A stretch of DNA of 48,519 bases from an uncultured Pseudomonadales bacterium (lineage in GTDB: Bacteria > Patescibacteriota > Microgenomatia > UBA1400 > MFAQ01), in contig CAZWYN010000001.1 in the NCBI GenBank assembly GCA_964638575.1, positions 1 through 48,519 of the forward strand. Direction: 5' to 3'. Positions 1-38,815 of this stretch are shown here, one piece after another. Position 1 is the first letter of the stretch. Each line of letters starts with the position of its first letter. A program made the translations under genes and the position numbers. The notes beneath the pieces were generated by a model. The model was not told the origin of the DNA and did not search any database. It saw nothing but the letters and a program-made list of their open reading frames with translations.

Positions 1-1
1 C

Positions 2-610
2 CCGATTCATTACACCGCCATAATAAACTTCACCATTTTTAAGGAAACGATTGATCTTCTCGACGGCATTGATGTTGACATTGATCCGGGATTTTCCGAC
101 ACCGAATTTCCTGTTCTCGGCAAGGAAAATGCAATACCAGTCTCTGATAGATACGAAACAATCACTTTTGCCACAGGTTCGGCTCATCTAAATGGTGAAA
201 TGGCCCTCAAATTTGTCCGCTCCCGTCACTCAGCAGGGGACGAAGGTACCGATTTTGCCCGCTCTCGTCGTCAACAGGCAGTCATCTCCGCTCTTCGTCA
301 AAAAATACTCACCCCTGCCTTTCTCCTGGACAAAAACAAGCTTGATGCCTTCTTCGAGATTCTCGACCGTAATCTCATTACCAATCTTGATAACAAACTT
401 TATCCAACTTTGGCTAAAATCGCTCTCGATACCAAAAATAATCCTGTAAAGTCGGTCACTTTTTCCGACCAGCCAGATGAAAATGGCATCACCATTTTAT
501 ATAACCCTCCCGTCAATCAGTTCAAGGGTGAGTGGGTCCTCATCCCCAAAGATAACAACTGGTCTGCCCTCAAAAAATATCTGGATAATCTCCTCAAGGG
601 TAAACAATAG
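2..610 (+). CDS. LytR-CpsA-Psr (LCP) family protein, C-terminal part; the 5-prime end lies outside the window
   Basis: Frame 2 is open from base 2 to the TAG at 608-610. The translation ...ETITFATGSAHLNGEMALKFVRSRHSAGDEGTDFARSRRQQAVISALRQK carries the LCP signature (L.fvRsRh..gD.gR..RQQ). The 200..610 ORF in the track is only the part after an internal Met. Confidence 0.8.
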   Translation, partial: PIHYTAIINFTIFKETIDLLDGIDVDIDPGFSDTEFPVLGKENAIPVSDRYETITFATGSAHLNGEMALKFVRSRHSAGDEGTDFARSRRQQAVISALRQKILTPAFLLDKNKLDAFFEILDRNLITNLDNKLYPTLAKIALDTKNNPVKSVTFSDQPDENGITILYNPPVNQFKGEWVLIPKDNNWSALKKYLDNLLKGKQ

Positions 611-2566
611 TTAATCGACTTTGATTAAGTAAGTATCGCCTTCCCTCCAAACCATCTCCCCAAGTTGCCATATTTTTTCTTCATTAACCCGGTAGGTTAT
701 TTTTTCGTCAAGACCAACTAATATCCAGCCTATGTTGTACTTATCAAGTATTTCTTCTGTTTTTTCAATACTCGCTCCCTGATATATTTCTTTCACCTCA
801 GTTTCTCGGGAAGCCACCACGCTATAACCACCTCTCCACAGCCATTCGTGTACCCGCCAACCCTGAATCGTCGGTACTCCGGAAAATACTGACACGGCAT
901 TAAATAGGGTATAGCTGTCACCGACTGCCTCAACCATATTTTTTTCGTTCATATTTTCCCTCAAATATTTCACTGCTCCATAATTTTCCGGAGCTTTAGT
1001 CTGCATCCATTTTTCACCATCCAAACCATAATAATTTGAAAAATTATCATAGTAAGTAGTGAAGGCTATAAATGAGAAGTTCATTGTTCCTGCAAAGATA
1101 AAGAAAATAATAAATATTGCCGCGACTCTCAAACCCAGGACGATTTTTCTACCCCTATCTAATAAATTTCCCAAAGTCACTCCCAACAAAATCCCCATCA
1201 GAATAAATGCTTGATAAGTTAGCTTGAACATTGTATTTGCCCTTGGATGGTTTGGGTAAATGTCTCGGGCAAAGACAAACTCCGGAATCGCTATCAAAAA
1301 CACGGCACTTAGAGCCAGTGTTCGGACAACTATTTTTTTCTCACCTCTTCCCTCAACAATTACTGCCAAAATATTGACCACTATTCCGCCACTCCACAGT
1401 ACCAGTAACTGCCAAAAAGGCGATCTTTCCGTTACCATCTCTACCCCACTTGAAATCGAAGTAAACGACAGCCACCAGGGTAAAGCCACCAACAAAAACG
1501 ATACCAACATTATCCCCGCCGTTTCTAAAAGTTTTTTTAACTCCCCGGTGTTCGCCACAGCCATCTGTATCCCCAAAACCAAGATGACCAAACCATAAAC
1601 CGCCACATCCCAGGTGTTGGTCATCATCATCACTCCAAACAAGACTCCCATCGCTATCTCATAAACTCTTTTTTTATTTTCAACCCAGTAAAACAGTACT
1701 GCTAAAAAAGTCAGAACGATTGGTAAATCCAATACGTGGCCATGCAAGTCGGAAACCACAAAACTATAGCTGGGAAACTCATGAATGGTATTGTGGATGA
1801 ATCTAGTGGCTTCAGCATACCAATAATTATCAAGACCTCTGTTTTTAATTAGATACCAGACAACATGACTATTCCCAGCCACCATCACTCCCAGGGCACC
1901 AATTATTCCTCCGATAGTAGCCGCCTTAGAATTTTTGTTTCCTGCGAGCATTACACACACCAAAAATACCAAACTCATCGAAGTGCCAAAGATAAAAGCT
2001 AACATCAGGTTGTAGCCCACTGCTGGTGTCACCCCCCAAACTCTTACCCAAATACTAGCCCAAAAATGTCCAAAAGAGTAGTAATTAATTGTCTGCCCAG
2101 CTTGCCACATATCCGGAGCCGGCAAGGTAGGCGACAATAAATACTGTTTTAGAAAACCGAAGTCCATAAATTTTTCCAAGCTGTCCAAACTTGGAGCGTG
2201 CGCTCTAATCAAAGCCATCACTCCAAACCCGACCAAGAAAAGATACTCTTCAATGGCGATTATTTTAGCCGTCGTCCTCGCCACGGTAAAAGCCTTTACT
2301 CCATGAGTAATAATCTGCCACAGACTCAAAAGACCAAACAAAGCCAGGACTGCGAACAGTTTCTCATTATTATTTTCCGTAATACCTAAGTAACTCAACT
2401 GCCAAATCAAAAGAGCCGCCATCAAGGTGACCGTCACTCTCCCCAAAGCCCAACCTTGATCCGGTAGTTTAGAAAAATACTTTTTGATTAAAGGCCAAAC
2501 TAAAAACTGCAAGCCAAGACTAATGACATAGGTTTTGAGGATCGTTATCAAGTCAACACTCCACAT
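611..2566 (-). CDS. Polytopic integral membrane protein, DUF2298-like (GT-C-like glycosyltransferase candidate)
   Basis: 651-aa ORF with an ATG start. Hydrophobic helices run through about the first 480 aa, followed by a soluble C-terminal domain. The motif INYYSFGHFW and the overall layout resemble the DUF2298 family as I remember it. It is the last gene of the long minus-strand operon. Confidence 0.55.
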   Translation of the reverse strand: MWSVDLITILKTYVISLGLQFLVWPLIKKYFSKLPDQGWALGRVTVTLMAALLIWQLSYLGITENNNEKLFAVLALFGLLSLWQIITHGVKAFTVARTTAKIIAIEEYLFLVGFGVMALIRAHAPSLDSLEKFMDFGFLKQYLLSPTLPAPDMWQAGQTINYYSFGHFWASIWVRVWGVTPAVGYNLMLAFIFGTSMSLVFLVCVMLAGNKNSKAATIGGIIGALGVMVAGNSHVVWYLIKNRGLDNYWYAEATRFIHNTIHEFPSYSFVVSDLHGHVLDLPIVLTFLAVLFYWVENKKRVYEIAMGVLFGVMMMTNTWDVAVYGLVILVLGIQMAVANTGELKKLLETAGIMLVSFLLVALPWWLSFTSISSGVEMVTERSPFWQLLVLWSGGIVVNILAVIVEGRGEKKIVVRTLALSAVFLIAIPEFVFARDIYPNHPRANTMFKLTYQAFILMGILLGVTLGNLLDRGRKIVLGLRVAAIFIIFFIFAGTMNFSFIAFTTYYDNFSNYYGLDGEKWMQTKAPENYGAVKYLRENMNEKNMVEAVGDSYTLFNAVSVFSGVPTIQGWRVHEWLWRGGYSVVASRETEVKEIYQGASIEKTEEILDKYNIGWILVGLDEKITYRVNEEKIWQLGEMVWREGDTYLIKVD

Positions 2567-2573
2567 ACTACTA

Positions 2574-3824
2574 TCATAAGTCCCTTACTATCATTTTGGC
2601 GACATCATTCCCCATTTTAACGGCATAATTTGTTCCTCGGTCAAACGGGTAAACCATGCTCATGTTAGCCAAATACAGCCCCTTGTGTTTAGTCTTTATC
2701 TCGGGTAGTTCTTTCGAGTAGTTCACCGGAAAAACCGGCTGGGCAAAAGGTTTTCGGAAAACTGCAGCACCCTTAATCCATTTTTTTCTGAAAAGTCGAT
2801 TCACTTTCCGTAGATAAGGAAGATACATGGTAATCAGCTCTTCCTGAGTCATTTTTAGTTGTTTACTGTCTTCCGGTAAATAATTACCCAGATATAAAAC
2901 CCTGTTGTTTCCATAATATTTTTTATCAATCATATTAGTGTGTTCCACTAACACCAAAAATGGCCAATTCTTTTCTAAAATATTCATCCAATATCCCTTT
3001 ATAAGTTTTTTATTAAGTTTCAACATCACCGTCTGTCCCCACAGATACGAAATCTTCGGGAAGGGATCTATATCTACGTCTAATATTTTTTCCATCACTG
3101 GTGCGGGCACCGTCACCACTACTCCGTCAAAATCGGCATCATCAACAAGCCACTTACCATCCTCTGTTTTTTTAATCCGATTGATTTTTCTTCCCAGCAT
3201 GATTTTTCCACCCAGCTTGATGATTTTTTCACCAGTTTTTTCTGCCAATTTTTGGAAACCCTCTTCAAAGTATCCCAAGTTTTTGGTTCTTTTGGCGACC
3301 CTAGTCCAAAACCAAGACATATTTACAGTGGAGGCAAAAGGTCCGAACTTTGCTTTCAGAAGTTTTTCCCAAATAATTCGATATCCCTCCTTTCCGATTA
3401 ATCGGGGTAGCATATCTACCACTTTATATTTCTCAAGAAACAAACCATTTGGAATAAGTTTCAATATCGCCAGCCCGATACCCATTTGTACTCGACTAAA
3501 AATACTCAATCCGGAAAATTTTAACAGGGAAATAGGAGAATCGAGCTGAACCTCTTTTTTGTTGAGAAAGCTTGTGGTTACAGGGTTTTTAATCAATGTC
3601 TTTGCCTCGACATCTTTAGCCAGCTCCAAAATATCTCTGTCATTTGTAAAAACGTGATGGTAAAAATACTCCAAACTCCACTTCCAATTTTTCTCACGTA
3701 CTCCTCCAGCCAATCCTCCCAAGGTATTTTCCTCTTCATACAAAACAACCTCAACATTTTTTTTCGCTAGAGCAAGGGCACAGGCAAGTCCGGTAAAACC
3801 ACCCCCTATTACGGCTATCTTCAT
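2574..3824 (-). CDS. NAD(P)/FAD-dependent oxidoreductase (amine-oxidase / phytoene-desaturase / protoporphyrinogen-oxidase-like)
   Basis: The N-terminal dinucleotide-binding fingerprint is MKIAVIGGGFTGLACALALAKKNVEVVLYEEENTLGGLAGG. The 416-aa length is typical of this flavoenzyme superfamily. Its start lies 2 nt downstream of the preceding gene's stop (3827). Confidence 0.7.
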   Translation of the reverse strand: MKIAVIGGGFTGLACALALAKKNVEVVLYEEENTLGGLAGGVREKNWKWSLEYFYHHVFTNDRDILELAKDVEAKTLIKNPVTTSFLNKKEVQLDSPISLLKFSGLSIFSRVQMGIGLAILKLIPNGLFLEKYKVVDMLPRLIGKEGYRIIWEKLLKAKFGPFASTVNMSWFWTRVAKRTKNLGYFEEGFQKLAEKTGEKIIKLGGKIMLGRKINRIKKTEDGKWLVDDADFDGVVVTVPAPVMEKILDVDIDPFPKISYLWGQTVMLKLNKKLIKGYWMNILEKNWPFLVLVEHTNMIDKKYYGNNRVLYLGNYLPEDSKQLKMTQEELITMYLPYLRKVNRLFRKKWIKGAAVFRKPFAQPVFPVNYSKELPEIKTKHKGLYLANMSMVYPFDRGTNYAVKMGNDVAKMIVRDL

Positions 3825-3826
3825 GT

Positions 3827-5215
3827 TTACAAGGCTAACAAGATTCCTACGATCGCGAGTAATAGTCCTCCACCAAAGGCTGCGATTCCGGGAAGATCAA
3901 AGATACCGGCTTCCGGAAGAATTGTCGGTGTTGGTGTCGTCGTTACCACCGTCACCACTGTTTGTGTCGGTGTTGGTTCTGATACCGTCGGTGCGGAAGT
4001 GACCACCACTGTTTGTGTCGTAGTTACACAGGTACAATCATCTTCAGCCAGACAAGCCGCGGTTCGGCATTTACTCGTTGTGGTATCACAGGTTAGTCCG
4101 GTTGCACACTCGGCGTTGGTGGTACAGGTATTGTTACATCCAACCACTGTGCTTACAGTAAGATCCTTAACCAAATTCAGTGTTCCACCCGGGAATGTTA
4201 CTTTTCCAGTATTAGTAATTACTGTACCGTTAGCAACTCCCTCACTAGCCTTTACCCTGAAGTTAAATTTCTTTGTTTCGGCAGGACTAATTGTAGTGTT
4301 GCATGTTAGTTCCGTGTCTGTTGCACTCCAAGTACATCCGGCACTGGCATCCATAAATGTGACCGGCATGTCTTTCAATGAGTCTTTAATTACGACACTG
4401 GTAGCATTCGCCGTACCCGTATTTGTCAGCGAAATTGAATAAACGTATATCTGGCTCTTAGACACAGCACTCATCTCAGACGTCAGTGTATAAGTTCCAG
4501 CCACATTTTCCGTCTCGTTCTTAAAGGCGGTCTTGCTTCCTGAAAGAGTTATGACAATCGGAGGTTCAACTCTTAAGCTATTTAGCCCTGTAAAGGTCTG
4601 GCTACCCAAAGTAGCAATCGCTGTGTTATCAATAGTAGAAGCTGCTGTAAAATCTCCCGTTACCTTCACCCTGAAATATTTTTCTATACTTTGTCCGGCT
4701 GTGAGGTTGAAAGCGGCACAACTATATTTTCTTGTCGCAGCATCAAAACTACAACTCTGGCTAGCTGGTGAGTCAACGAACGTCAGCTTGTCCAAATTTC
4801 CCCCAGTCAGAGTATCACTCAAAACCACTCCGCTTACAGTGTCAACTCCAGCATTTTTTACCTGAATTCTGTATACAAAAGTAGCACCCATCGTCGCCAT
4901 GTCTGTATCGGTTTTTATGGTGTAACCCTCAGTTTTTGTAGCATCATCTACGTATGTCGAGGCTTTCTTCACCACGGTCACGTTCGTTTCCACAGCCGTC
5001 GCTGTTCCGACCACTGTACAAGCAGGGTCACCAACCCACTGAATTCCGGTAGGAGTTACTGCTCCAATTGGTTCTGCTGCTGCGGGTTCACTCTCTGGCG
5101 CAGTCGGAGCCACGGCTTCTCGAGTAGAAAGCTGAGTCGCCACGTAAATCGAAGCACCTCCAAGAAGAATCACAATTAGTACAAGGGCTATGGCTAGTAT
5201 TTTTTTCTTGTTCAT
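3827..5215 (-). CDS. Cell-surface protein: N-terminal signal/anchor, two DUF11-like repeat domains, 8-Cys module, Thr/Val/Pro stalk, C-terminal LPEAG + hydrophobic sorting-like tail
   Basis: The N-terminus is MNKKKILAIALVLIVILLGGASIYVA. Two beta-rich repeats have the DUF11-type pattern (FVYRIQVKNAGVDTVSGVVLSDTL... and YVYSISLTNTGTANATSVVIKDSL...). A Cys-rich block GCNNTCTTNAECATGLTCDTTTSKCRTAACLAEDDCTC follows. The tail is ...TILPEAGIFDLPGIAAFGGGLLLAIVGILLAL. Confidence 0.6.
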   Translation of the reverse strand: MNKKKILAIALVLIVILLGGASIYVATQLSTREAVAPTAPESEPAAAEPIGAVTPTGIQWVGDPACTVVGTATAVETNVTVVKKASTYVDDATKTEGYTIKTDTDMATMGATFVYRIQVKNAGVDTVSGVVLSDTLTGGNLDKLTFVDSPASQSCSFDAATRKYSCAAFNLTAGQSIEKYFRVKVTGDFTAASTIDNTAIATLGSQTFTGLNSLRVEPPIVITLSGSKTAFKNETENVAGTYTLTSEMSAVSKSQIYVYSISLTNTGTANATSVVIKDSLKDMPVTFMDASAGCTWSATDTELTCNTTISPAETKKFNFRVKASEGVANGTVITNTGKVTFPGGTLNLVKDLTVSTVVGCNNTCTTNAECATGLTCDTTTSKCRTAACLAEDDCTCVTTTQTVVVTSAPTVSEPTPTQTVVTVVTTTPTPTILPEAGIFDLPGIAAFGGGLLLAIVGILLAL

Positions 5216-5220
5216 TTATC

Positions 5221-7089
5221 TTATGGTGTAGTACTAACTTGTGCTTCAAACTGATAACTCCCAGGTGATCCAACTAGATAATCCGAGTAACTTGATACTT
5301 TTGCGACAGTCGAACTTGCAGATATCCAATTTCCGGGAATATTATTTACATGCACTCTAAACTGTGCTTTCAGATTATCGAGACTTCCTGTTACCGAGAA
5401 TTTAAGCAAATCACCCACCTTCAAACTTTGTAGCTGAGTTGTTGTTAGAGGTGTGGTTGAATACACCCCATTTACTGCCTTATATATTTTGACATCTACA
5501 CACGCCCCCACAACCGTCGTTGCCGCTTTATATCCAACTACAACGTCAAAATCGTTAAAGTCATAGTTTGCGTCCAACTGTCCTCTGGTATTATTATCGA
5601 CTCCCTGAATGGTATCCGCCCAACACTGGAAGGGGGAACTAACCCCTGATGTCGTATAAATTCCAAAGCTACTTAATGCCGATGGCGTTATTCTTAAACT
5701 AATATCCCTTAACTCACCATATCTTCGACAGCTTCCTCCTGAAGGATTAATGTAACCCAAGGAGTTTGTTGCTTCGTTTCCCAACTTTATGGTAACTGTA
5801 TAGGTTCCTGGTTGGACAACTGCGTCAAAATTATTGTCGTCAACTTTTGTTACGGCTGTACCAGTTCCAGTTCCAGCCAAAGCAACCGTTGTTCCGGCGC
5901 TCGCTCCCGTAAGATGAATGCGTACTGTTCCCGCCGTTGTAAAGTTTATGGTGTTAATTTTGCTTCTGTCAGGATTACAAATCAGTTGGTTCTCTTGGCT
6001 ACTCGTCGCCCCCGGTATATATGTGTATGCCACACACACATCAGTTCCACCGACTGGTGCTGTTGGTGTTGCGGTTGGCACAGTTGTTGGTGCTGCGGTT
6101 GGCGCAGCTGTTGCCGTTGGAACCACCGGAGTACACGGACCCCACTCTCCACATGCTGGCCTTGACGCAATTCCTAGCGAAATACAAGTTCTTGTACCAG
6201 CCACATTTGCAATACCGGAAGTACAGCCAGATGTCTGAGCGGTTACACACTCACAACTCTGTGTTGGTGTCGGTGTTGTTGCGGCAGCACAACTGGTATT
6301 ATCTACACAACTCGAAGAAGGACAAGCCTGGGTATAACCAACGGTTGTTGTTGATGAAACACAAACACTCCCGGAACAATTTCGAACGGTACAAGTTTTT
6401 GTAGAGGGAGTAGCTGTTGGTGTTGGTTGGGTCGTACAAGTTGCATCTGGAGTACAGTAATAACCTGCAAAGGAGGTTCCTGCAGCCTGAACCTTACACC
6501 TCTCACCTGTCAGACAGCCTGCAGCAGCTCCACATGTTCCTTCTTTATCGGCGGCACATCTACTTCCGGCCAAAGGTTCACTCTCTGGTGCCGTAGGGGC
6601 CACTGCTTGTCTGGTCGACAACTGATTGGAAACATAGTAAGCTGCTCCAGCCACACCAATAACTAATAGCAAAGCCACAATACCCCCAACTATCGGAAGT
6701 ATTTTTTTCTTGGGTTTTTCTGCCGGCATTGATACTTCTTCGGGAGCAGGTGTTGGCGCCGAAAAAGGTTCCGATGAGGGGATGGTCGTCGTTGTCGTCG
6801 TGGTCGTTATCGGTTCTGGTTGAGGAGTAGGCGTAGACAAAGGTTCTGGACTTGGCCACGGCGTTATCGGAGCCGTTTCGGCCGGTGGAGTCATCGTCTC
6901 GGCGGGAGTAGTCACTGTTTCTTCTGTGGGTGCAACCACTGGTTCGGTATAAGTCGTTGTCGTCGTGGTCGTTATGGGAGTTGGGGCTGGAGTCGGGGAT
7001 TCAACAGGGGTTATGTCTTCGGCCGCCTTGGGAACAACCGGAGTCGTACCCGAAACCAAAGGCTGATTAATTTTATTTTGATCGTCCAT
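5221..7089 (-). CDS. Large membrane-anchored surface protein: Pro/Thr-rich N-terminal extension, TM anchor, 18-Cys region, DUF4114-like and beta-sandwich C-terminal domains
   Basis: 622-aa ORF. The TM segment KKKILPIVGGIVALLLVIGVAGAAYYV is preceded by about 120 aa of P/T/E-rich sequence. The post-anchor motif NQLSTRQAVAPTAPESEP is shared with the neighbouring gene. The stretch QLDANYDFNDFDVVVGY resembles the DUF4114 signature. An alternative internal ATG at 6729 would give a classical signal-anchor. Confidence 0.5.
   Translation of the reverse strand: MDDQNKINQPLVSGTTPVVPKAAEDITPVESPTPAPTPITTTTTTTYTEPVVAPTEETVTTPAETMTPPAETAPITPWPSPEPLSTPTPQPEPITTTTTTTTIPSSEPFSAPTPAPEEVSMPAEKPKKKILPIVGGIVALLLVIGVAGAAYYVSNQLSTRQAVAPTAPESEPLAGSRCAADKEGTCGAAAGCLTGERCKVQAAGTSFAGYYCTPDATCTTQPTPTATPSTKTCTVRNCSGSVCVSSTTTVGYTQACPSSSCVDNTSCAAATTPTPTQSCECVTAQTSGCTSGIANVAGTRTCISLGIASRPACGEWGPCTPVVPTATAAPTAAPTTVPTATPTAPVGGTDVCVAYTYIPGATSSQENQLICNPDRSKINTINFTTAGTVRIHLTGASAGTTVALAGTGTGTAVTKVDDNNFDAVVQPGTYTVTIKLGNEATNSLGYINPSGGSCRRYGELRDISLRITPSALSSFGIYTTSGVSSPFQCWADTIQGVDNNTRGQLDANYDFNDFDVVVGYKAATTVVGACVDVKIYKAVNGVYSTTPLTTTQLQSLKVGDLLKFSVTGSLDNLKAQFRVHVNNIPGNWISASSTVAKVSSYSDYLVGSPGSYQFEAQVSTTP
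6788..6810. repeat. 23-nt perfect direct repeat, copy 1 (gtcgttgtcgtcgtggtcgttat), encoding ITTTTTTT on the minus strand
   Basis: The string is identical to 6953-6975, read directly from the sequence. Confidence 0.9.
6953..6975. repeat. 23-nt perfect direct repeat, copy 2
   Basis: The string is identical to 6788-6810. Both copies lie in the P/T-rich N-terminal extension of the 622-aa ORF. Confidence 0.9.
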
Positions 7090-7151
7090 GCGTTTAAGTA
7101 CGGTCCATTAAACAGGGCCTGTCTACACTATAAAGAAGATTTGGTAATTTA

Positions 7152-8525
7152 TCAATCTCTCCACCATTTTTTTGATGTTCGTCCAAAGATGAATAATATA
7201 ATTCCCAGTATTCCCATTAAAATAGTAAAGTCCAACGCTCCGGTTTCCTCTAATGTTCCCGAACTGGTTGCCGGCATACTTGGTTCCTTAGTTGGTGTAG
7301 CCGACACGGTTCCTGTCGGTGAAATAGGTGAAACGGTAATCGTCGCTGAAGGTGTTGCTGTAAATGCCGGCAAACCCGCCGTACTATCTGACGCCAAAAC
7401 GGTAAAAGTTCTGATTACCTTCTGAAATATATTATTTTCATCGGTATACTCCAGTGTCAGAGTGTGCACTCCAGGTTCTAAATCTTGAGGAGGAGTCCAC
7501 TTCCAAACGCCGTCTTTATCGGCCTTAATAATCTGTGTCAGTTCAATCGGAGAGTTTACTGTAACTCTAATGGTGGTTCCGGGGGTCGCTTTTCCCGCAA
7601 ACTCTGGTGAACTGGTGGCAATCATCTCCCCGTTTATTGCCGGATTCGTAATTATCATCGAACCAGCCGCCTCGGTTGCTTCTGGTGCTAGAACGGGAGC
7701 CGCTTCTTCGGTGATATTTTTAAAACCCCCACTTTTTATATCGGACTCGACCAAAGTTCCCGATCCTGTTGCCACAGTCGTCTCCACAAAACTTTGATTT
7801 TTTCCTAATACGATGTCGGGTACAGGTTTGGTTTTTTCGGTATTAGTAATCGCTGTTGCGGTTCCCGAGATGCCCGCCTGAACAAAAATTGAGACAAGTG
7901 ACGTCTTGGGATCATACGTCAAAACCGCTCCGTCTTTGTCTCGCGATAAGGCCAAGTTTAGTCTCCAAGATCCATTGTTTGTCATTGCCGACAGAGTCTC
8001 CCCGCCCTGAACCTCGACGTAAACAATCGCGTTGTTTACGGGACTGGAATCAGCCCCAATTACTTTTCCACTTATGACGTCTTCAGGAGGTGCAATCACT
8101 TGTTTCCCCGTTCGCACTTCAAAAGGTTTTCCGGAGTCATCGTATGTCTGAGATCCCGATCCAATCATAAAATAAATAGTCTTGTCCGGATTTAATCCAG
8201 TTACTTTTACATAATGATTGGTATACCCCTGAGAACTTCCTGATATTTGATCACGGATATCACCAGCAGGTGTCGTGATTTTGGTTGGATTCTCCGAGTA
8301 ACTTAGATATCCCGTCACCGGCGTATCAGTTGTCCAGCTGACAGTGAAAGTATTTGCTCCTCGATCGGATATCTTTACGTTTTTTGGAGCCTCTGTCGGC
8401 CCTGCTTTAGTCAAAATACCCTGACGGTTATTTACGAGAACCACACCCGCAACCAGACCTCCTAATAATATTAGGACCCCGAGGGCTGTTGGTATTTTCT
8501 TGGCCATCAGGCCTGTTTTATTCAC
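7152..8525 (-). CDS. Surface protein with FN3-like, carboxypeptidase-regulatory-like and Ig-like domains and a C-terminal LEETG sortase-type sorting signal
   Basis: The N-terminal anchor is MAKKIPTALGVLILLGGLVAGVVLV. PKNVKISDRGANTFTVSWTTDTPVTGYLSY is fibronectin-III-like. ISGKVIGADSSPVNNAIVYVEV resembles a CarboxypepD_reg domain. The tail LEETG-ALDFTILMGILGIILFIFG-RTSKKWWRD has the motif, hydrophobic stretch and basic end of a sorting signal. The track start at 8525 is a GTG; an ATG at 8507 is at least as likely. Confidence 0.6.
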   Translation of the reverse strand: MNKTGLMAKKIPTALGVLILLGGLVAGVVLVNNRQGILTKAGPTEAPKNVKISDRGANTFTVSWTTDTPVTGYLSYSENPTKITTPAGDIRDQISGSSQGYTNHYVKVTGLNPDKTIYFMIGSGSQTYDDSGKPFEVRTGKQVIAPPEDVISGKVIGADSSPVNNAIVYVEVQGGETLSAMTNNGSWRLNLALSRDKDGAVLTYDPKTSLVSIFVQAGISGTATAITNTEKTKPVPDIVLGKNQSFVETTVATGSGTLVESDIKSGGFKNITEEAAPVLAPEATEAAGSMIITNPAINGEMIATSSPEFAGKATPGTTIRVTVNSPIELTQIIKADKDGVWKWTPPQDLEPGVHTLTLEYTDENNIFQKVIRTFTVLASDSTAGLPAFTATPSATITVSPISPTGTVSATPTKEPSMPATSSGTLEETGALDFTILMGILGIILFIFGRTSKKWWRD

Positions 8526-8844
8526 TTATTTGTATTTGTGTAGTTGCCGAACCGGTAGACTCCGGTATCACTGGCTCAACTGTCTCGGTTATTTCAGGTG
8601 TTGGGGTAGTAATCAATAGTAACCCCATCTCGGCTTCGGTATACACAGTTCTCCTTTCGAGATTATCAATTACTGTTTGGTTGATTGCACCATCTAAAGA
8701 TTTAATAGCTTTTGCTTGCTGTGTTGTCGTCTGGCTTTTTGTCGAGGCAGAGTAGATCTGGTAAGCCACTATTCCTCCCACAATAGACAGCCCCATCACT
8801 CCTACCAATAATATATAAGAAGATAGTGTTCTGGTTGTTTTCAT
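8518..8844 (-). CDS. Small bitopic membrane protein, function unknown (occupies the position after pilO)
   Basis: 108 aa with one N-terminal TM segment (LSSYILLVGVMGLSIVGGIVAY). Its ATG overlaps the pilO-like stop (ATGA at 8841-8844). Confidence 0.45.
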   Translation of the reverse strand: MKTTRTLSSYILLVGVMGLSIVGGIVAYQIYSASTKSQTTTQQAKAIKSLDGAINQTVIDNLERRTVYTEAEMGLLLITTPTPEITETVEPVIPESTGSATTQIQISE

Positions 8845-9500
8845 TGTTTGTCGGTATAGAAGTAAAAGGTCATTTGACCCGTAGCATTAAGTGAATCTTC
8901 CGCCCTAGTCAAACCAATTTGTTTGGTAAGAGAGACGCTATTAAGTAAAACCAACCTATCCATATTTTCAATATCTTTAAGAAAAATAATCACATCTTGT
9001 GGTTTCCCTCTTACAGAAAACGTTAACTGGTTAGACAAAACATTTGCACTCGGCTTAATTAATTTTGTAGTCAATTCACCCCCAGTTTTTTCTTCACCAA
9101 GAAGAGAAATTCCTGGAAAAACCAACGAATCAAGAATCAAATTATTCTTTTTTGCCACATATTCTAATCTAAGGGAACTATCGACATAGGAAAAGTAGTC
9201 CGGAACAGCCTCGTCAAAAAGTTTCAACTTGCCCCTGAACGTATTTAGTTGATTCTGTGCATTTAAAAGTTGGACAATTTTGTTGTCGGCTTTTTTATTA
9301 ATTACTTCCTGGTCTTCAATTTTTTTCTGTAGAGAGACAATATTAGTAAGTGTTGGCCTTATAGCAGCAAATATCAATATAGTTATGGTAAATACCGATA
9401 AAATTACCTCCAAAGATGCTCGGATCTCCGGACGTTTATACATCAAACTAACTTTTTGAAAGTAAAGAGAGTATTTTTCGTTGTTTAGTATGCTCGCCAT
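8841..9500 (-). CDS. pilO: PilO-like type IV pilus alignment-complex protein
   Basis: It has a short cytoplasmic N-terminus, one TM segment (LEVILSVFTITILIFAAIRP), a coiled coil (LQKKIEDQEVINKKADNKIVQLLNAQNQL) and a C-terminal ferredoxin-like part (TFSVRGKPQDVIIFLKDIENMDRLVLLNSVSL). Its start overlaps the stop of the PilN-like gene by 1 nt. Confidence 0.6.
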   Translation of the reverse strand: MASILNNEKYSLYFQKVSLMYKRPEIRASLEVILSVFTITILIFAAIRPTLTNIVSLQKKIEDQEVINKKADNKIVQLLNAQNQLNTFRGKLKLFDEAVPDYFSYVDSSLRLEYVAKKNNLILDSLVFPGISLLGEEKTGGELTTKLIKPSANVLSNQLTFSVRGKPQDVIIFLKDIENMDRLVLLNSVSLTKQIGLTRAEDSLNATGQMTFYFYTDKQ

Positions 9501-10045
9501 TATTTAAAAGTAATTTGAACACCAAACTTTACCCCTCCAGTAGTTTGATCAAAGCTGGTTTCTTTCATAGTAATTGTTGCCACCCCAGGCATTCTCTTTA
9601 CTCCGCTAATAAACTGGGCAAATCCGTACTCTGATTGTGCTTTTCCGACAACCATTAAACCGTTTTTATCAAGAGATAGGCTGTCAAGGGAAGTTCCCAC
9701 GGGTAAAATCTGTGTCAGCCCATCAATTTTTGATGCAAAAACAAGACCGCTTCTTTGTGAAGTCTCCACGGGAAGCTGTTTGGCCAAAACTTTTCGCATC
9801 TCTACTTCCACTTCGGCATAAGCCGCAATCTGAGCTTCTTTTTGTACCAAAACTTCCCCTAAATCGTCAAGTTTTTTGTCAAAATAAAACCGGGATGCGA
9901 ATGCTAACAACACCACAAACTCGGTCAAGACTACCAAAACCCTGCCTGCTGTTGTAATCCACTTTAAAATTTTCCCTGCGGTAGAGAACTCGAAACTATC
10001 CTTTGGCAATAAGTTAATACTAGAAACACTATGAGCAGTAGCCAC
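9500..10045 (-). CDS. pilN: PilN-like type IV pilus alignment-complex protein
   Basis: The N-terminal SSINLLPKD matches the conserved PilN INLLP peptide. One TM segment (VLVVLTEFVVLLAFASRFYF), a coiled coil and a small alpha/beta domain follow. The start codon is GTG. Confidence 0.65.
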   Translation of the reverse strand: MATAHSVSSINLLPKDSFEFSTAGKILKWITTAGRVLVVLTEFVVLLAFASRFYFDKKLDDLGEVLVQKEAQIAAYAEVEVEMRKVLAKQLPVETSQRSGLVFASKIDGLTQILPVGTSLDSLSLDKNGLMVVGKAQSEYGFAQFISGVKRMPGVATITMKETSFDQTTGGVKFGVQITFK

Positions 10046-10067
10046 ACCTTCAGTGTACCAAAAATCC

Positions 10068-10310
10068 TTACTTTTTGGGGGAGATTTTTTTGGACAAACG
10101 AGCCTTTATTCTGTCGGCCTTACCTTTTTTCAAAACACCTTTTTTTGCGGCTTTGTCTACCATTGAGAAAGCAACAGACAGTGTTTCGACGGAGAGAACT
10201 TTCTTAAATGTGTCGATGGCCGACTTAGCCTTAGTCTTAGTAGCTTTGTTAAATCCGGCTTTTTTTACGTCGGATCTGAGTTTTTTTATTGCTGATTTTG
10301 TTATTGGCAT
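10068..10310 (-). CDS. rpsT: 30S ribosomal protein S20
   Basis: MPITKSAIKKLRSDVKKAGFNKATKTKAKSAIDTFKK... is an 80-aa, very basic protein with the typical S20 N-terminus. Confidence 0.9.
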   Translation of the reverse strand: MPITKSAIKKLRSDVKKAGFNKATKTKAKSAIDTFKKVLSVETLSVAFSMVDKAAKKGVLKKGKADRIKARLSKKISPKK

Positions 10311-10316
10311 GCGCTA

Positions 10317-10344
10317 ATTTTACCACGAGCTCCACCTAGCGCAA
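10317..10344 (-). promoter_or_regulatory. Candidate sigma70-type promoter of rpsT (-35 TTGCGC, 16-nt spacer, extended -10 TGgTAAAAT) placed for a leaderless transcript
   Basis: On the minus strand the sequence reads ...cTTGCGCtaggtggagctcgTGgTAAAATtagcgcATG. Only 6 nt separate the -10 hexamer from the ATG. Confidence 0.45.
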
Positions 10345-10372: not shown

Positions 10373-12019
10373 GTGGTTCAAAAACTGTTAACTAAGTCAC
10401 AAGCAATACTAAATCGCAAGAGTTCGAGTATTCTTTCGGCTGCTACTATCATTGCTGCTTCCTTTCTCCTGTCAGCCTTTTTGGGGCTGATCAGGAATCG
10501 CTTACTTGCCGCCAGATTTTTTGGTGGTCTCGAAGGGGATCTGGACGTTTACTTTGCCGCCTTCATTATCCCGGACACTATTTTTCAACTTTTGGTAGTT
10601 GGTGCTGTTTCGGCCGCCTTCATCCCCATTTACCAAGGCTATCTTAAAAAATCGGTCAAGAAAGCCAATTTTATGGCCAATGTTTCCCTCACTCTTGTTA
10701 CCACCACTCTTCTTGTTTTATCCATCATCATTGCCATTTTTGCTCGCCCGTTTTCTCAAGCGCTTTCGCATTACACCGGTTCACAGCTCGATTTAATGGT
10801 GAATCTAATCCGACTTATGTCGATTGCCCAGATATTTTTTTCGATTTCCTCTTTTCTAACAGGTATTCTTCAGGCCCACCGCCGTTTTTTAATACCCGCC
10901 ATTGCTCCGCTTTTTTATAATCTCGGCACGATTCTCGGAATTCTGATTCTGACCCCCTACATTGGCATTTACGCCGCCGCCGTTGGTGTCATTTTTGGTT
11001 CCATTCTCCACGTTATCATTCAGCTACCCGCCGCAATTCATACCGGTTATACTCTCAAATTCCGCCTTCGGTTTAATCACAAGGGTGTTCGCCGGATGCT
11101 TCGTCTTATGCCGCCTCGCTCTTTTTCTCTTGCTCTCGTTCAAGTTGAGCGTATTGTTTCTTTAAATATTGCCTCCGCCTTACCCGCCGGATCATTTACT
11201 ATTTTCAACTTCGCTCGTCAGGTTTATGTTCTCCCCATCACTCTTTTTGGTGTTTCACTGGGACAGGCATCCTTCCCGACCTTAGCTGAAGAAGCACTCA
11301 GCAAGGATAAAACTAAGTTTGCCGACACTCTCGGAAAAACAATTTTGCAGATTTTTTTCTTCTGTCTTCCGGCCGCCATCCTCATTCTTATCTTAAGGAT
11401 CCCCATCGTCCGTATTATTTTTGGTGCCAGAAATTTTCCTTGGGAAGCAACTCTCCTGACCGGTAAAGCTCTTGCTATTTTTTCCCTTTCTATCGCCCCC
11501 CAAGCTGCAGTTCAGCTACTCACTCGTGCTTTCTACGCCCAAAAAAATACTCGCACTCCTCTCATCATCAACATCGCCACCTTGATACTTTTTATCCTCA
11601 CTTCCTATCTTTTTACCCACACTTTTTCTTGGGGAATTTTAGGCCTGAGCACCGCAATGAGTCTTAGTAACGCTCTCAACTTTTTGGTACTTTATCTTAC
11701 GATTAGTGCCACCCTACCTAGTCTTGGAATTACCATGGAAATTATTAAAATGCTTTTTGTCAGCGTCCTTACCTCCTTTGCTCTCTGGATACCCATGAGG
11801 CTTCTCGATCAATTTGTTTTTGACACCACTCGTACCGTGCCACTTCTCATTCTTACGGCAATCGTCAGCCTTATTGGCCTTATCGTTTATTTTGGACTTG
11901 CCAATCTTCTCAAGGTTAAACAGTACGCCGATGTTAAAAGACTCTTTGTTAAGCTCGGCAACTGGCGTCAGGTGCTCGGAGAAACCGACGAGGTTATCGA
12001 GACACCGATTGTCGGCTAA
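10373..12019 (+). CDS. murJ: Lipid II flippase MurJ (MviN family)
   Basis: 548 aa and polytopic. The N-terminus SILSAATIIAASFLLSAFLGLIRNRLLAARFFGG and the later FYAQKNTRTP motif are typical of MurJ/MviN. The start codon is GTG. Confidence 0.85.
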   Translation: MVQKLLTKSQAILNRKSSSILSAATIIAASFLLSAFLGLIRNRLLAARFFGGLEGDLDVYFAAFIIPDTIFQLLVVGAVSAAFIPIYQGYLKKSVKKANFMANVSLTLVTTTLLVLSIIIAIFARPFSQALSHYTGSQLDLMVNLIRLMSIAQIFFSISSFLTGILQAHRRFLIPAIAPLFYNLGTILGILILTPYIGIYAAAVGVIFGSILHVIIQLPAAIHTGYTLKFRLRFNHKGVRRMLRLMPPRSFSLALVQVERIVSLNIASALPAGSFTIFNFARQVYVLPITLFGVSLGQASFPTLAEEALSKDKTKFADTLGKTILQIFFFCLPAAILILILRIPIVRIIFGARNFPWEATLLTGKALAIFSLSIAPQAAVQLLTRAFYAQKNTRTPLIINIATLILFILTSYLFTHTFSWGILGLSTAMSLSNALNFLVLYLTISATLPSLGITMEIIKMLFVSVLTSFALWIPMRLLDQFVFDTTRTVPLLILTAIVSLIGLIVYFGLANLLKVKQYADVKRLFVKLGNWRQVLGETDEVIETPIVG

Positions 12020-36641: not shown

Positions 36642-38815
36642 CGACTTCAGTCATGAACTTAGTAAATCTATTTGGAAACAAGTCAAAAACCAAGGAACCG
36701 GACTATTTTTTGGCCATCGAGATTCATGAATCTCTCATCAAAACCGCCCTCTGGGAAGTTGCCGAGGGAACTCCCTCTGTCATTAAAGTGGGATCATTCG
36801 AGTCGTGGGCAGACGAAGACTCTCTTATAAATGGGGTCGACGCCTCACTCGAGCAAGCAGTCAAAGACATCGATTCTGAGCCCCGAAAGGTTATTTTTGG
36901 ACTTCCTGATTCCTGGATTAATGACGGCAAAGTTCACCCTTCAAAAACAAAGCTAATAAGTCGTCTAGTCAAAGAACTAGGACTTGATCCCATTGGTATG
37001 GTTCCCATAAACTCCGCCATTGCTCATTACATGAAAAATCTTGAAGGCATTCCCCCCACGGCTATTCTTCTTGAAATCTATACCACTAAAGTCGTTGTCT
37101 CTGTTATCGAAAAAGGCGAAATAACCTCATCGGAAGAAACTGCCAGGTCAGATGATCTAGCCCAAGACGTCGAGGAAGGACTAACCGTTATTGGCAAGGA
37201 AAAGCTACCGGCTCGCTTTATCCTCACCAACGGCGGAGCACTTGAGGAAGAAGAACAGCACATTACCTCTCATCCTTGGCAGGAACGGCTACCTTTTCAG
37301 CACATGCCCAAAGTTGAAGCCTTACCCGTAGACTTTAGTATTCGGGCAATTGCCCTCACCGGGGGGACTGAAGCTGTTCAGTACCTTACCGGAAAGACAA
37401 GTGAAGAGCCACACGAAGAGAGTCTTCCTCACGAAGAAACCAATATTTATGTTCCGGAAGTATCACCGACATCCATTGATGAGCTCGGTTTTTCGTACGA
37501 AGAGGCCGACGCCCCTTCTTCTGTAGAGAAAGCTCCCCCTGAAACATATCTCGAACCATCCATCGACATCTCGGAACCAGAATATGCTCTTCCCCAAGAA
37601 GAACCTACCTTTACTCCAAAACCAAAAACTAAACTCGCTTTTTCCCTACCAACTTTTCCAAAATTTAGTCTTCCCGACATAAAAGTAAATAAACTTTCTT
37701 GGTTATATTTACTAGCCCTACCCTTGTTGTTGGGTTTGGGCTACGTCCTCTATCTTTTTACAGGACAGGCAATCGTCTCCATAGCCTTCAATCCTCAAAA
37801 AATCACTGGTCAATACACCATCTCCATTGCCGAAAGTTCCGTTTCCGCCACACCTACCTTGCTGGCCACTAAAAAAACGGTTTCTGGTTCAGCTAAAGAA
37901 CAAATTCCTACCACTGGGGACGCAACTGTAGGAGACAAAGCTTCCGGAGCAATTACCATAGCCAACAAATCCACAGCCCCCATTGTTATTAAAGCTGGCT
38001 CCACCATTCTTTCCGAAAATAGCAAATATGCGTATACCGTAAATGATGCGGTGACCGTCGCTTCCAAGAGTGCTGATGTCGGCATCGTTCAGGGAGCATA
38101 TGGAATTGCGCCGGGGGTAAAAGTAACGGCTGCCAAGATTGGTGCCGACTACAACCTTCCCAAAAACTCAAATTTCTCTGTTGATAACTACTCAAAAAAC
38201 ACCATCATCGCCGTCGCTGACGCAGACTTCTCCGGTGGAACGTCCAGAGCAGTTCGTGCAGTTTCCAAAGCCGATCAAGACAAACTTCTTTTGCTGGCCA
38301 CCGAGAAAATAAAGACGCAGATTCAAACCTCAACTCAGTCACAAACTCCCGGATTTAAATCTCTGGCGCTTTCTGAATTTGCCTTCACTAAAAAAACTTT
38401 TGACAAGAATATTGGCGAAGAAGCCACAGTTCTAAATTTGGATCTTGAAGGATCGGTTGATACTCTCGTTTACTCCGAAGATAATCTTTATCAACTAATT
38501 GCGGCTCAGCTCACCCCCCAAATACCCGCAGGGTCGGAAATTTTTCCCGGAAACACCGCCATCATACTCGAAGAACCAGTTAAAAAAGACGGCTACTACG
38601 AAGCAAAAGTAAATGTAGAGACCAGCCTATTCCCCAAGATTGATGAAGAAAAATTAAGAGCAGCTATTGGGGGAAAGTCCGTAACCGGAATTCGCCCTTA
38701 CTTCTCTACCATTCAAGGATTCAGTCAGCTTAGGGTAAAAATTGCCCCCAAAATTCCAATTTTCACCAACTTCCTTCCCCTAAAAAACATCAAGTTTGAA
38801 CTAGTGGAGGACTAA
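36638..38815 (+). CDS. Bitopic membrane protein: degenerate PilM/FtsA-like (ASKHA) cytoplasmic domain, acidic linker, TM, baseplate-J/gp47-like ectodomain
   Basis: FLAIEIHESLIKTALWEV, ILLEIYTTKVVVSVIEKG and IALTGGTEAVQYL sit in the order of the ASKHA phosphate-1, phosphate-2 and adenosine motifs. The TM segment is LSWLYLLALPLLLGLGYVLYLFTG. In the ectodomain, GDATVGDKASGAITIANKSTAPIVIKAGSTIL...GVKVTAAKIGADYNLPKNSNFSV...ADFSGGTSRAV resembles Baseplate_J proteins. The TTG at 36638 overlaps the alaS stop; the first ATG is at 36653. Confidence 0.45.
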   Translation: MTTSVMNLVNLFGNKSKTKEPDYFLAIEIHESLIKTALWEVAEGTPSVIKVGSFESWADEDSLINGVDASLEQAVKDIDSEPRKVIFGLPDSWINDGKVHPSKTKLISRLVKELGLDPIGMVPINSAIAHYMKNLEGIPPTAILLEIYTTKVVVSVIEKGEITSSEETARSDDLAQDVEEGLTVIGKEKLPARFILTNGGALEEEEQHITSHPWQERLPFQHMPKVEALPVDFSIRAIALTGGTEAVQYLTGKTSEEPHEESLPHEETNIYVPEVSPTSIDELGFSYEEADAPSSVEKAPPETYLEPSIDISEPEYALPQEEPTFTPKPKTKLAFSLPTFPKFSLPDIKVNKLSWLYLLALPLLLGLGYVLYLFTGQAIVSIAFNPQKITGQYTISIAESSVSATPTLLATKKTVSGSAKEQIPTTGDATVGDKASGAITIANKSTAPIVIKAGSTILSENSKYAYTVNDAVTVASKSADVGIVQGAYGIAPGVKVTAAKIGADYNLPKNSNFSVDNYSKNTIIAVADADFSGGTSRAVRAVSKADQDKLLLLATEKIKTQIQTSTQSQTPGFKSLALSEFAFTKKTFDKNIGEEATVLNLDLEGSVDTLVYSEDNLYQLIAAQLTPQIPAGSEIFPGNTAIILEEPVKKDGYYEAKVNVETSLFPKIDEEKLRAAIGGKSVTGIRPYFSTIQGFSQLRVKIAPKIPIFTNFLPLKNIKFELVED

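Follow-up and report, generated by a model that had tools for sequence, protein, structure and literature searches.

Why would genes for PilN and PilO, two proteins of the type IV pilus alignment machinery, lie among genes for surface proteins and envelope-modifying enzymes? The question is posed by contig CAZWYN010000001.1, from a groundwater bacterium of the Candidatus Collierbacteria lineage (candidate phyla radiation, CPR; Microgenomates), which we analyzed as a single window of 48,519 nucleotides (nt) with 36 main open reading frames (ORFs), the set covered by the family searches. Genes identical to its pilN occur on Rifle groundwater metagenome contigs, and the nearest reference genomes by PilN identity are a ‘Microgenomates group bacterium’ metagenome-assembled genome (97%) and Collierbacteria GW2011_GWA2_42_17 (93%). 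From position 611 to 10310, nine co-directional ORFs occupy the minus strand, running from rpsT through pilN and pilO to a gene for a DUF2298 membrane protein (Table 1). The original prediction, made from the letters of the window, had described a ten-gene operon; we count nine ORFs, as did its own gene list, and its junction sizes are exact (overlaps of 1, 4 and 8 nt; gaps of 2, 5, 7, 22 and 62 nt). Every product from PilN to the LytR-CpsA-Psr (LCP) protein encoded beyond the run is a predicted envelope protein, except for an FAD-dependent oxidoreductase that has no predicted location.

With a probability of roughly 0.55, we read the locus as a conserved Microgenomates cell-envelope cluster of known parts, in which a detached pilNO pair is combined with lineage-specific envelope proteins, adhesin-like proteins and likely glycosylation enzymes. 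Its parts are known and it is not a new kind of machine, while the arrangement is undescribed: as the original prediction had supposed, no account of it was found in the searchable literature. Three aspects appear to be new, judging from the genomes compared. One is that pilNO stays steadily apart from the pilus locus. Another is that it keeps constant partners, namely rpsT, a gene for a small transmembrane (TM) protein and a gene for a putatively doubly anchored FN3/Ig protein. The third is its apparent linkage, over the Microgenomates, to GT-C enzymes and to CnaA-type proteins with LPXTG-like tails.

The identification of PilN carries much of this reading, and PilN is genuine. The protein passes the Pfam cut-off for PF05137 (25.2 bits against 22.8; E=1.7e-5), and nearly all of the 120 PilN homologues listed have a precomputed match to that family. 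Its N-terminus contains SINLLPK at residues 9-15 (INLLPK is encoded at 10001-10018), within which N11, L12, P14 and K15 are invariant in an alignment of 21 PilN homologues; an INLLPK-type motif is also found in the more distant loci L042-L046. In studied systems the N-terminal INLLP peptide of PilN docks PilM, as seen in the Thermus and Pseudomonas PilM:PilN peptide structures. PilN is predicted to be bitopic, with the cytoplasmic N-terminus, single TM helix and long helix leading to a ferredoxin-like domain by which members of the family are recognized. The AlphaFold2 (AF2) model (mean predicted local distance difference test score, pLDDT, 79) has a disordered N-terminus, a TM helix running into a long helix (22-113), and a C-terminal beta-beta-alpha-beta-beta ferredoxin-like domain (118-180). 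Searched with Foldseek, this model returned GspL, PilN or PilO domains as its top 8 matches (TM-score on target up to 0.78), the best being the periplasmic domains of PulL, EpsL and XcpY, T. thermophilus PilN (4bhq) and Pseudomonas PilO (2rjz). The PilN family profile, run against the PDB, found M. xanthus PilN first. The usual place downstream of pilM is what this PilN does not have, as rpsT precedes pilN in every context.

The start of pilO overlaps the stop of pilN by 1 nt (TAATG). Taken singly, the PilO-like protein of the window falls below the PF04350 cut-off (18 bits against 22); the same profile matches 17 of 20 PilO orthologues (best E=2.1e-7), the sole PDB match of the orthologue profile is M. 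xanthus PilO (3jc8, E=2.6e-4), and distant orthologues are tagged PilO or T2SSM_b. PilO is thus supported at the family level. Both products therefore find PilN or PilO profiles, and of the labels originally proposed, ‘PilN-like’ stands on Pfam score, INLLPK motif and GspL/PilN-like predicted fold, while ‘PilO-like’ holds for the family and not for the single sequence.

The arrangement recurs well beyond one genome. Scanning a genome collection with the PilN profile gave 34 species-level loci, all Collierbacteria-like, and we read their gene order by tblastn of the window proteins. All 34 show the same order: murJ on one side; then rpsT, pilN, pilO, the small TM gene, the FN3 gene, a variable set of Cys-rich and DUF11 genes, the FAD oxidoreductase gene and the DUF2298 gene; and the LCP gene on the other side. 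Stop/start overlaps within the stretch from pilN to the FN3 gene (1, 4 and 8 nt) are conserved, with the pilN/pilO and pilO/small TM junctions remaining overlapping over species. As the Collierbacteria loci also share their flanks (hrcA, GH39, lepA), we examined more distant contexts, the PilN profile having reached 1801 clusters at 50% identity with E<=1e-3 and 726 with E<=1e-10. Seven more distant representatives, including Woesebacteria, all have rpsT next to pilN. One of them is a short contig that shows little more; the longer ones all go on with pilO and a small TM gene, followed by an FN3/Big_13 gene except at L046 and L047. Where contigs extend far enough, there follow a protein with the C-terminal domain of the Cys-rich type, a protein with an LPxAG-plus-TM tail and an N-terminal ‘VAPxAPESxP’ motif, and then membrane enzymes of the PMT, PMT_2, GT87 or DUF2298 kind; most of those contigs also carry an LCP gene. 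At L050 the left flank is different (groES/EL and yidC, without murJ or the dnaK operon), and the block S20-PilN-PilO-small TM-FN3-Cys-rich-LPxAG-PMT is intact. This combination of rearranged flank and intact block is our best evidence that the cluster is conserved as a unit beyond general synteny. Right flanks also differ (tpiA or uvrD) with the block intact, and rpsT adjoins pilN in every context examined, L050 included.

Two further genes follow pilO. The small TM protein bears its TM helix at the N-terminus and is rich in Thr and Pro at the C-terminus, and its gene overlaps pilO by 4 nt. Profile searches in Pfam and NCBIfam found no family for it, and since it has no Cys, and hence no lipobox, it is not a lipoprotein. 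It occupies the same position in 34 of 34 Collierbacteria loci at 41-95% identity, and counterparts of 72-131 amino acids (aa) are found in the other Microgenomates contexts. The FN3 gene holds the fourth position from pilN in 33 of the 34 Collierbacteria loci, the 34th contig ending within the gene, and is also present in L042-L045, L049 and L050. Its product combines fn3/Pur_ac_phosph_N, CarboxypepD_reg and Big_13 domains (Pfam) behind an N-terminal TM helix, and ends in an LEETG pentapeptide (encoded at 7239-7253), a further TM helix and a basic tail, KKWWRD (...FGRTSKKWWRD). Across orthologues the pentapeptide follows the pattern [LV]-x-x-[TAS]-G, and because other lineages have VPVAG, VPEAG or LPKAG at this site, the tail seems to be ancestrally LPXTG-like. 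Neither protein is a candidate pilin, as the prepilin-type G/(F,M)xxxE N-terminus is absent from both. Nor is either a recognizable PilP or PilQ: the third product has no lipobox or family match, the fourth is an FN3/Big_13 protein, and there is no secretin match in the window.

The original prediction had made the whole run a single operon starting at rpsT. Two conserved promoter-like elements lie inside the run, before pilN and before the Cys-rich gene, so that a single operon is unlikely, and three transcription units are, as read from sequence and its conservation, most likely. Internal promoters were among the findings that the original prediction itself counted as contrary. In 28 of 34 loci, exactly 6 nt separate the pilN start from an upstream element of the form TGnTAnACT; the other six have a -10-like hexamer 6-8 nt ahead of the start, and the position is constant though the gap between rpsT and pilN spans 19-222 nt, and TGnTATAnT-like elements stand in this gap in other Microgenomates too. 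We infer that this is pilN’s own promoter, and rpsT probably forms its own transcription unit. The rpsT and pilN elements share their -10-to-start geometry, which suggests leaderless-type transcripts; such mRNAs may be frequent in this lineage and would extend even to pilN with its GTG start. At L026, a 222-nt insertion between rpsT and pilN (9779-10000) carries GC-rich hairpin-like repeats (e.g. CCTCGCCTTTGCGAGG and CCGGGTCAAGCCCGG) and leaves the pilN -10 untouched. Several genes of the window thus share an extended -10-like TGnTAnnnT that ends 6-7 nt before the start codon: rpsT (10317-10325), pilN and a 219-aa ORF (19298-19957, minus strand).

The element before the Cys-rich gene, TTGAYR-17-TATAGT, is kept in 9 of the 11 Collierbacteria species aligned and is followed by a short conserved inverted repeat (GGYCC...GGACY). 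Outside Collierbacteria the TTGATA/TATAGT element is absent and the FN3/Cys-rich junction measures 1-13 nt or overlaps; in those lineages pilN and the five genes after it, up to that for the LPxAG protein, look like one unit. No terminator was seen to split the cluster: scanning the window gave 7 terminator-like sites, none of them in any intergenic gap, and since nothing terminates transcription, read-through between the units is likely.

Table 1. Features of the pilNO cluster and related features of the window, with the evidence for each.
Feature	Positions	Strand	Support
LytR-CpsA-Psr (LCP) gene, 3' part, cut by window start	1..610	+	PF03816
DUF2298 / Chlor_Arch_YYY polytopic membrane protein, 651 aa	611..2566	-	PF10060, TIGR03662
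FAD-dependent oxidoreductase, 416 aa	2574..3824	-	NF005560, PF01593
CLIPPER (DUF11) + DUF7619 protein, 462 aa	3827..5215	-	PF01345, PF24595
Cys-rich type II membrane protein, 622 aa, 23 Cys	5221..7089	-	family-less
Promoter-like TTGATA, 17 nt, TATAGT in 62-nt FN3/Cys-rich gap	7127..7155	-	10/12 consensus matches
FN3/CarboxypepD_reg/Big_13 protein, 457 aa	7152..8525	-	Pfam matches
Small bitopic membrane protein, 108 aa	8518..8844	-	family-less
pilO-like, 219 aa	8841..9500	-	PF04350 at family level
pilN, 181 aa	9500..10045	-	PF05137
pilN extended -10-like element TGGTACACT	10052..10060	-	ends 6 nt before GTG start
rpsT (ribosomal protein S20)	10068..10310	-	TIGR00029 57.6 bits, PF01649
rpsT promoter-like site TTGCGC, 16 nt, TGgTAAAAT	10317..10344	-	read from sequence; -10 ends 6 nt before ATG
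murJ (lipid II flippase)	10373..12019	+	TIGR01695 288.5 bits
720-aa bitopic protein, 1 nt upstream of sortase	36653..38815	+	family-less; AF2 mean pLDDT 79.5
Sortase, only one in window	38817..39569	+	PF04203 E=1e-20; TIGR01076 53.6 bits vs cut-off 39.35

Past the FN3 gene the cluster becomes more variable. Proteins with LPXTG-like tails do come directly after pilNO, as the original prediction had it, and profile matches back its FN3/Ig, DUF11, flavoenzyme and DUF2298 labels; its DUF4114 label for the Cys-rich protein fell, there being no Pfam match, to DUF4114 or otherwise, even at E<=10. The Cys-rich protein has type II membrane topology: its cytoplasmic N-terminus is disordered and rich in Thr and Pro, and a TM helix lies at about residues 131-155. 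It further has a ‘QLSTRQAVAPTAPESEP’ motif and an ectodomain rich in Cys, and its conserved beta domain at the C-terminus is also found in proteins at the same position in L042, L044 and L046. It has no C-terminal sorting signal and evolves fast (33-85% identity between Collierbacteria loci). Its neighbor combines a CLIPPER domain (PF01345, E=3.7e-13) with DUF7619 (PF24595, E=2.8e-12), both CnaA-like domains in which intramolecular isopeptide bonds are common and which make up stalks in pilins and fibrillar adhesins (PMC12617251). The protein begins with a TM/signal segment that includes a ‘VAPTAPESEP’ motif, and has a Thr/Pro linker and the C-terminal tail LPEAGIFDLPGIAAFGGGLLLAIVGILLAL-COOH (encoded at 3827-3919).

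That tail is the most conserved part of an otherwise changeable protein. Its consensus, LPE[AT]G[IV][LF]D[FL]PG[IV]AAFGGGLLLAxxGILLAL-COOH, is almost invariant, while the passengers that carry it range over 149-751 aa in length and share 26-94% identity. Each of the 30 copies found in the compared loci sits inside the cluster, which encodes 1 to 3 tail-bearing proteins. The pentapeptide is LPEAG in the window and L-P/K/T-x-[TAS]-G over orthologues. Searching for homologues with the bare 43-aa tail returned three small proteins. A PGF-CTERM or other exosortase-type signal was considered for this tail and is not supported, as no NCBIfam sorting-domain model matches it; one Woesebacteria tail scores 12.6 bits against a sorting-signal cut-off of 15.9. 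On their motifs, the FN3 and DUF11 proteins are plausible sortase substrates, and the tail of the DUF11 type may represent a signal of its own.

Directly after the N-terminal TM helix, a motif QLSTR(E/Q)AVAPTAPESEP, in general form ...R...VAPxAPESxP, is present in the Cys-rich protein (residues ~156-175) and the CLIPPER protein (residues ~27-46), and again at L042:13677-14279, L044:14545-15429, L046:12592-13107 and L050:14630-15475. It is thus common to Cys-rich and LPxAG-tailed proteins over Microgenomates lineages, with a looser version, KAGPTEAPKNV, in the FN3 protein, and it may be a processing or recognition site.

The one sortase gene of the window passes the generic sortase model only, its best class-specific match being class C (54.3 bits against a cut-off of 160). 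It is preceded by the gene for a 720-aa protein; the pair is inserted between alaS and ruvX/mltG, and the pairing is kept at 43% identity at L048. In its model, the 720-aa protein has a cytoplasmic actin-like (ASKHA) domain joined through a TM helix to an outer domain resembling baseplate J. Foldseek likens the N-terminal domain to EutJ, PPX/GppA, PilM (5eoy and 5eou, the latter entry bearing the name ‘PilM:PilN1-12’) and FtsA, and the C-terminal domain to phage and diffocin baseplate proteins; EutJ, PPX and sugar kinases match the actin-like domain as well as PilM and FtsA do. Given its GspL-like topology, the protein is a possible PilM/GspL-type partner, as far as the model goes.

The run ends in two enzyme genes. 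The FAD oxidoreductase is of the amine-oxidase/phytoene-desaturase type (NF005560, 366.9 bits against a cut-off of 252); its gene is always immediately upstream of the DUF2298 gene in Collierbacteria and is absent from the other Microgenomates contexts. The DUF2298 protein scores 287.8 bits with PF10060 and 394.6 bits with TIGR03662 (cut-off 300.25). PDB sequence searches were empty for it and gave nothing useful for the FAD enzyme. In Woesebacteria, L046, L049 and L050, PMT, PMT_2 or GT87 genes occupy or join the DUF2298 position, and a true PMT + PMT_4TMC gene (protein O-mannosyltransferase) is inserted beside the oxidoreductase-DUF2298 pair at L035:16479-17915. The DUF2298 protein is thus a putative GT-C-type glycosyltransferase. 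Thr/Pro-rich segments are concentrated in the surface proteins of the cluster, and the enzymes would O-glycosylate these proteins or carry out a related transfer of lipid-linked glycan, while the LCP protein would attach wall polymers. Insertions are tolerated between the FN3 gene and the genes of the tail-bearing proteins: the PMT + PMT_4TMC gene lies there at L035, and an AAA_14/DUF4143 ATPase gene at L021:9947-11125.

On either side, the LCP gene is convergent with the DUF2298 gene and kept there in most loci (the full 356-aa gene is seen in L001 and L002), and murJ is divergent from rpsT and is the left neighbor in all contexts but L050. The remaining ~38 kb of the window hold housekeeping genes and the sortase gene, and Rfam and tRNA scans of the whole window were empty. 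Between lepA and hrcA lies a GH39-family glycoside hydrolase gene (13792-15183, minus strand) that is absent in L007-L009 and in the non-Collierbacteria contexts; with the gene missing in some close relatives, the neighborhood evidently varies by insertion or deletion. A 456-aa ORF (28064-29434, minus strand) has weak ATP-grasp-type ligase matches only (biotin carboxylase-like and BesA-like; E 1e-6 to 1e-9, far under cut-offs) and no Pfam family. GC skew of the plus strand is negative in 23 of 24 2-kb segments of the 48.5-kb stretch, and the cumulative skew falls steadily, matching the one-strand C enrichment published for Collierbacteria and Ch65 genomes (PMC7143001).

Where, then, is the rest of the pilus machine? 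The original prediction saw no PilM, pilin, prepilin peptidase, PilB/T/C or secretin gene nearby, and indeed none matched among the window’s 36 main ORFs. CPR bacteria generally have PilB/T/C/M/N/O/D, often co-located, and nearly all Microgenomates encode a sortase (PMC6744442); in Saccharibacteria, pilMNO is part of the pilus loci (PMC12206443). A single pilus locus is described in the closed genome of Ch65, a sister of Collierbacteria; PilA, minor pilins and PilD/B/T/C/M are listed for it, and PilN and PilO are not (PMC7143001). The invariant INLLPK implies, as far as a motif can, a PilM-type partner encoded elsewhere. Because INLLPK is retained and the Ch65 locus lacks PilN and PilO, the simplest reading is a split pilus gene set, with the other pilus genes elsewhere in the genome.

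Under our reading of a conserved envelope cluster, rpsT would be transcribed from its own promoter, and the genes from pilN to FN3 would form a translationally coupled unit on a leaderless-type mRNA that starts from the -10 element 6 nt before pilN. PilN/PilO dimers would form a membrane alignment ring, with INLLPK docking a PilM-type actin-like protein encoded elsewhere. The small TM and FN3/Big_13 proteins, encoded in the pilP and pilQ gene positions of diderms, would extend this ring outward, the FN3/Big_13 protein being held in the membrane by its N-terminus and, if a sortase acts, linked to peptidoglycan at its C-terminus. Together they would replace PilP and PilQ, tying the PilNO platform to the wall of a cell without an outer membrane. 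The Cys-rich type II protein and one or more CnaA-like proteins would be a third unit of fast-evolving, adhesin-like surface proteins, and the FAD oxidoreductase, the DUF2298 protein (PMT/PMT_2 in sister lineages) and the LCP protein would glycosylate these adhesins or attach polymers around them. The identities of the genes, their conserved order, the promoter-like elements and the conservation of the tails are what the analysis shows, whereas the sortase processing, the glycosylation and the assembly of PilNO together with the small TM and FN3 proteins are what we infer.

Several findings weigh against this reading. The housekeeping flanks (murJ, hrcA-grpE-dnaK-dnaJ, LCP, uvrD or tpiA) are largely collinear too, and only L050 splits conservation of the cluster from general synteny. 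Partnership of the FN3 protein with PilNO is not obligatory, since the protein is absent in L046 and L047. Within the window, to which the search was confined, we located no pilus ATPase, platform protein, peptidase, pilin or recognized PilM, and the placement of pilus genes elsewhere in the genome draws on one published sister genome and general CPR surveys. The promoter scan gave 19 sites in total against 17.4 in shuffles, a count not above chance, and we therefore relied on cross-species conservation; the promoter calls accordingly combine consensus matches with conservation, and it would be unusual for a leaderless mRNA to begin with GTG. For the tails, the original prediction was right that LEETG and LPEAG are there, while its term ‘sortase-dependent’ reflects inspection of motifs: neither tail of the window matches any NCBIfam model at E<=10, those for sorting signals included, and the basic end that follows the hydrophobic segment in the FN3 tail is absent from the DUF11 tail, which ends in ...GILLAL. 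The sortase lies 29 kb from the cluster, and none of the loci has one within it. Finally, the case for DUF2298 as a glycosyltransferase is made from its position in the cluster and not from structure.

These points leave room for other readings of the same genes. PilN and PilO could have been co-opted as the platform of a separate system that displays or polymerizes the neighboring sortase-type substrates, the whole run then being one functional operon. Adjacency of pilNO to LPXTG-like genes is conserved in Microgenomates and survives flank rearrangement, and outside Collierbacteria the six genes from pilN to LPxAG are packed with junctions <=13 nt. Moreover, unusually little variation is seen in the PilN TM segment and in the DUF11-type tail, as expected if the two are partners within the membrane; the sortase has beside it a bitopic actin-like protein that could replace PilM; and PilMNO homologues have been recruited elsewhere, for example to a flagellar cage (PMC10823254). 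Set against this, the PilM-docking motif is retained, and the pilus locus of a sister lineage has PilM without PilN or PilO, making these two its obvious missing parts. Conserved promoter-like elements set rpsT apart from the pilN module and, in Collierbacteria, the pilN module from the adhesin module; the distant sortase fails the cut-off of the pilin-polymerizing class C, and the actin-like domain fits EutJ and PPX equally well as PilM. We consider co-option improbable. Also unlikely in our judgment is that PilN and PilO are not, or not only, pilus parts and form the core of a CPR-specific type IV filament/sortase hybrid with the small TM, FN3/Ig and Cys-rich proteins, one that would insert, export or polymerize the CnaA-like proteins tailed with LPx[TA]G-FGGGLLLAxxGILLAL, with the 720-aa protein as its PilM/GspL-like partner.

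Secretion is a further possibility, if one of low probability: in a monoderm cell, PilNO with PilB, PilC and pseudopilins encoded elsewhere could push the downstream proteins, folded and stabilized by disulfide and isopeptide bonds, through the wall in the manner of a type II secretion system (T2SS), the genes being clustered with their cargo. C. perfringens pilM, pilN and pilO mutants secrete less BsaC, and its pilN and pilO mutants release fewer BsaA oligomers, but this is a preprint whose result the authors call partly ‘not definitive’ (PMC11580942). The closeness of the PilN model to GspL periplasmic domains and the T2SSM_b match of one PilO orthologue point the same way, and the candidate cargo proteins, Cys-rich or CnaA-like, are folded and >25 kDa. 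Yet they have membrane anchors of their own (an N-terminal TM helix or a C-terminal TM tail), which fits display over release; cargo genes are seldom linked to gspL and gspM, and the precedent lies outside the CPR.

Just as improbable, in our view, is the absence of any functional link, with pilNO merely beside unrelated envelope genes in small, dense, collinear genomes: tight spacing throughout the window, conserved order of the flanking housekeeping genes, separate promoter-like elements and FN3-to-GT-C content that varies in number and kind (including the L021 insertion) would all suit compaction, but the L050 block is intact without MurJ or the DnaK operon on its left, the block stays when the right flank switches, the overlaps from pilN to FN3 are conserved, and the products from PilN to LCP share, the oxidoreductase aside, a predicted envelope location.

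If the cluster is what we take it to be, it bears on how CPR bacteria meet their hosts, as they are thought to need pili and surface proteins for host attachment. The outer part of the CPR pilus machine is unknown because these cells have no outer membrane and no secretin; the small TM and doubly anchored FN3/Ig proteins are concrete predicted candidates for the missing outer components. The cluster, which is conserved over a large superphylum, also yields candidate adhesins and predicted glycosylation enzymes that evolve together with those components, and flags an unclassified, highly conserved C-terminal sorting tail. Detached pilNO would explain why published Microgenomates pilus loci have PilM but no PilN or PilO.

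Among known systems, the cluster is readily compared with the PilM-PilN-PilO-PilP subcomplex of Pseudomonas, Myxococcus and Thermus. PilN has the same INLLP-type N-terminus, TM helix, coiled-coil helix and ferredoxin-like domain, and, as in the type IVa alignment subcomplex, pilO directly follows pilN with an overlapping start and two envelope proteins are encoded in the pilP and pilQ positions. Unlike there, rpsT and not pilM is upstream of pilN and no pilus ATPase or pilin genes are nearby; the third product is a non-lipoprotein without a beta-sandwich domain, and the fourth, in place of a secretin, is an FN3/Ig protein whose tail is LPXTG-like. Type IV pilus loci of other CPR and Gram-positive bacteria (Saccharibacteria TM7x loci 1 and 2; Clostridium; the CPR families of Méheust et al. 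2019) are likewise monoderm and secretin-less, and the standard CPR pilus set includes PilM, PilN and PilO (PMC6744442, PMC12206443). Those loci, however, keep pilMNO with pilB, pilC, pilT, pilD and pilins, whereas here pilNO stands among surface-protein and glycosylation genes.

The GspL-GspM-GspC proteins of the T2SS offer a second likeness, as the PilN model best resembles PulL, EpsL and XcpY, and GspC and the FN3 protein are both bitopic, the TM helix being N-terminal and the outer domains rich in beta structure. The cluster’s PilN, however, lacks the fused cytoplasmic domain of GspL, and no GspC HR or PDZ domain was detected. In C. perfringens, for which a T2SS-like use of type IV pilus genes has been proposed, PilM/N/O influence the export of isopeptide-linked matrix proteins (PMC11580942); in the cluster, by contrast, the candidate cargo genes are adjacent, their products are membrane-anchored, and function is predicted from genes.

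With the sortase-dependent proteins and pili of Gram-positive bacteria, the cluster shares, in degenerate form, a C-terminal motif L-P/x-x-T/A-G followed by a hydrophobic segment, the CnaA-like passenger domains and a sortase in the genome. It departs from them in that LEETG lacks Pro, LPEAG lacks Thr, and the DUF11-type tail is nearly invariant, unlike ordinary anchors; compared with sortase-assembled pilus loci, it has no adjacent sortase, and the sortase of the window is under the class C cut-off. PMT enzymes, of the GT-C type, O-mannosylate Thr/Pro-rich secreted proteins in Actinobacteria. Although in the window the corresponding position is held by DUF2298 and an FAD oxidoreductase, and a glycosylation role here is predicted from the genes, the cluster has comparable Thr/Pro linkers, and PMT or PMT_2 genes stand in the clusters of its sister lineages.

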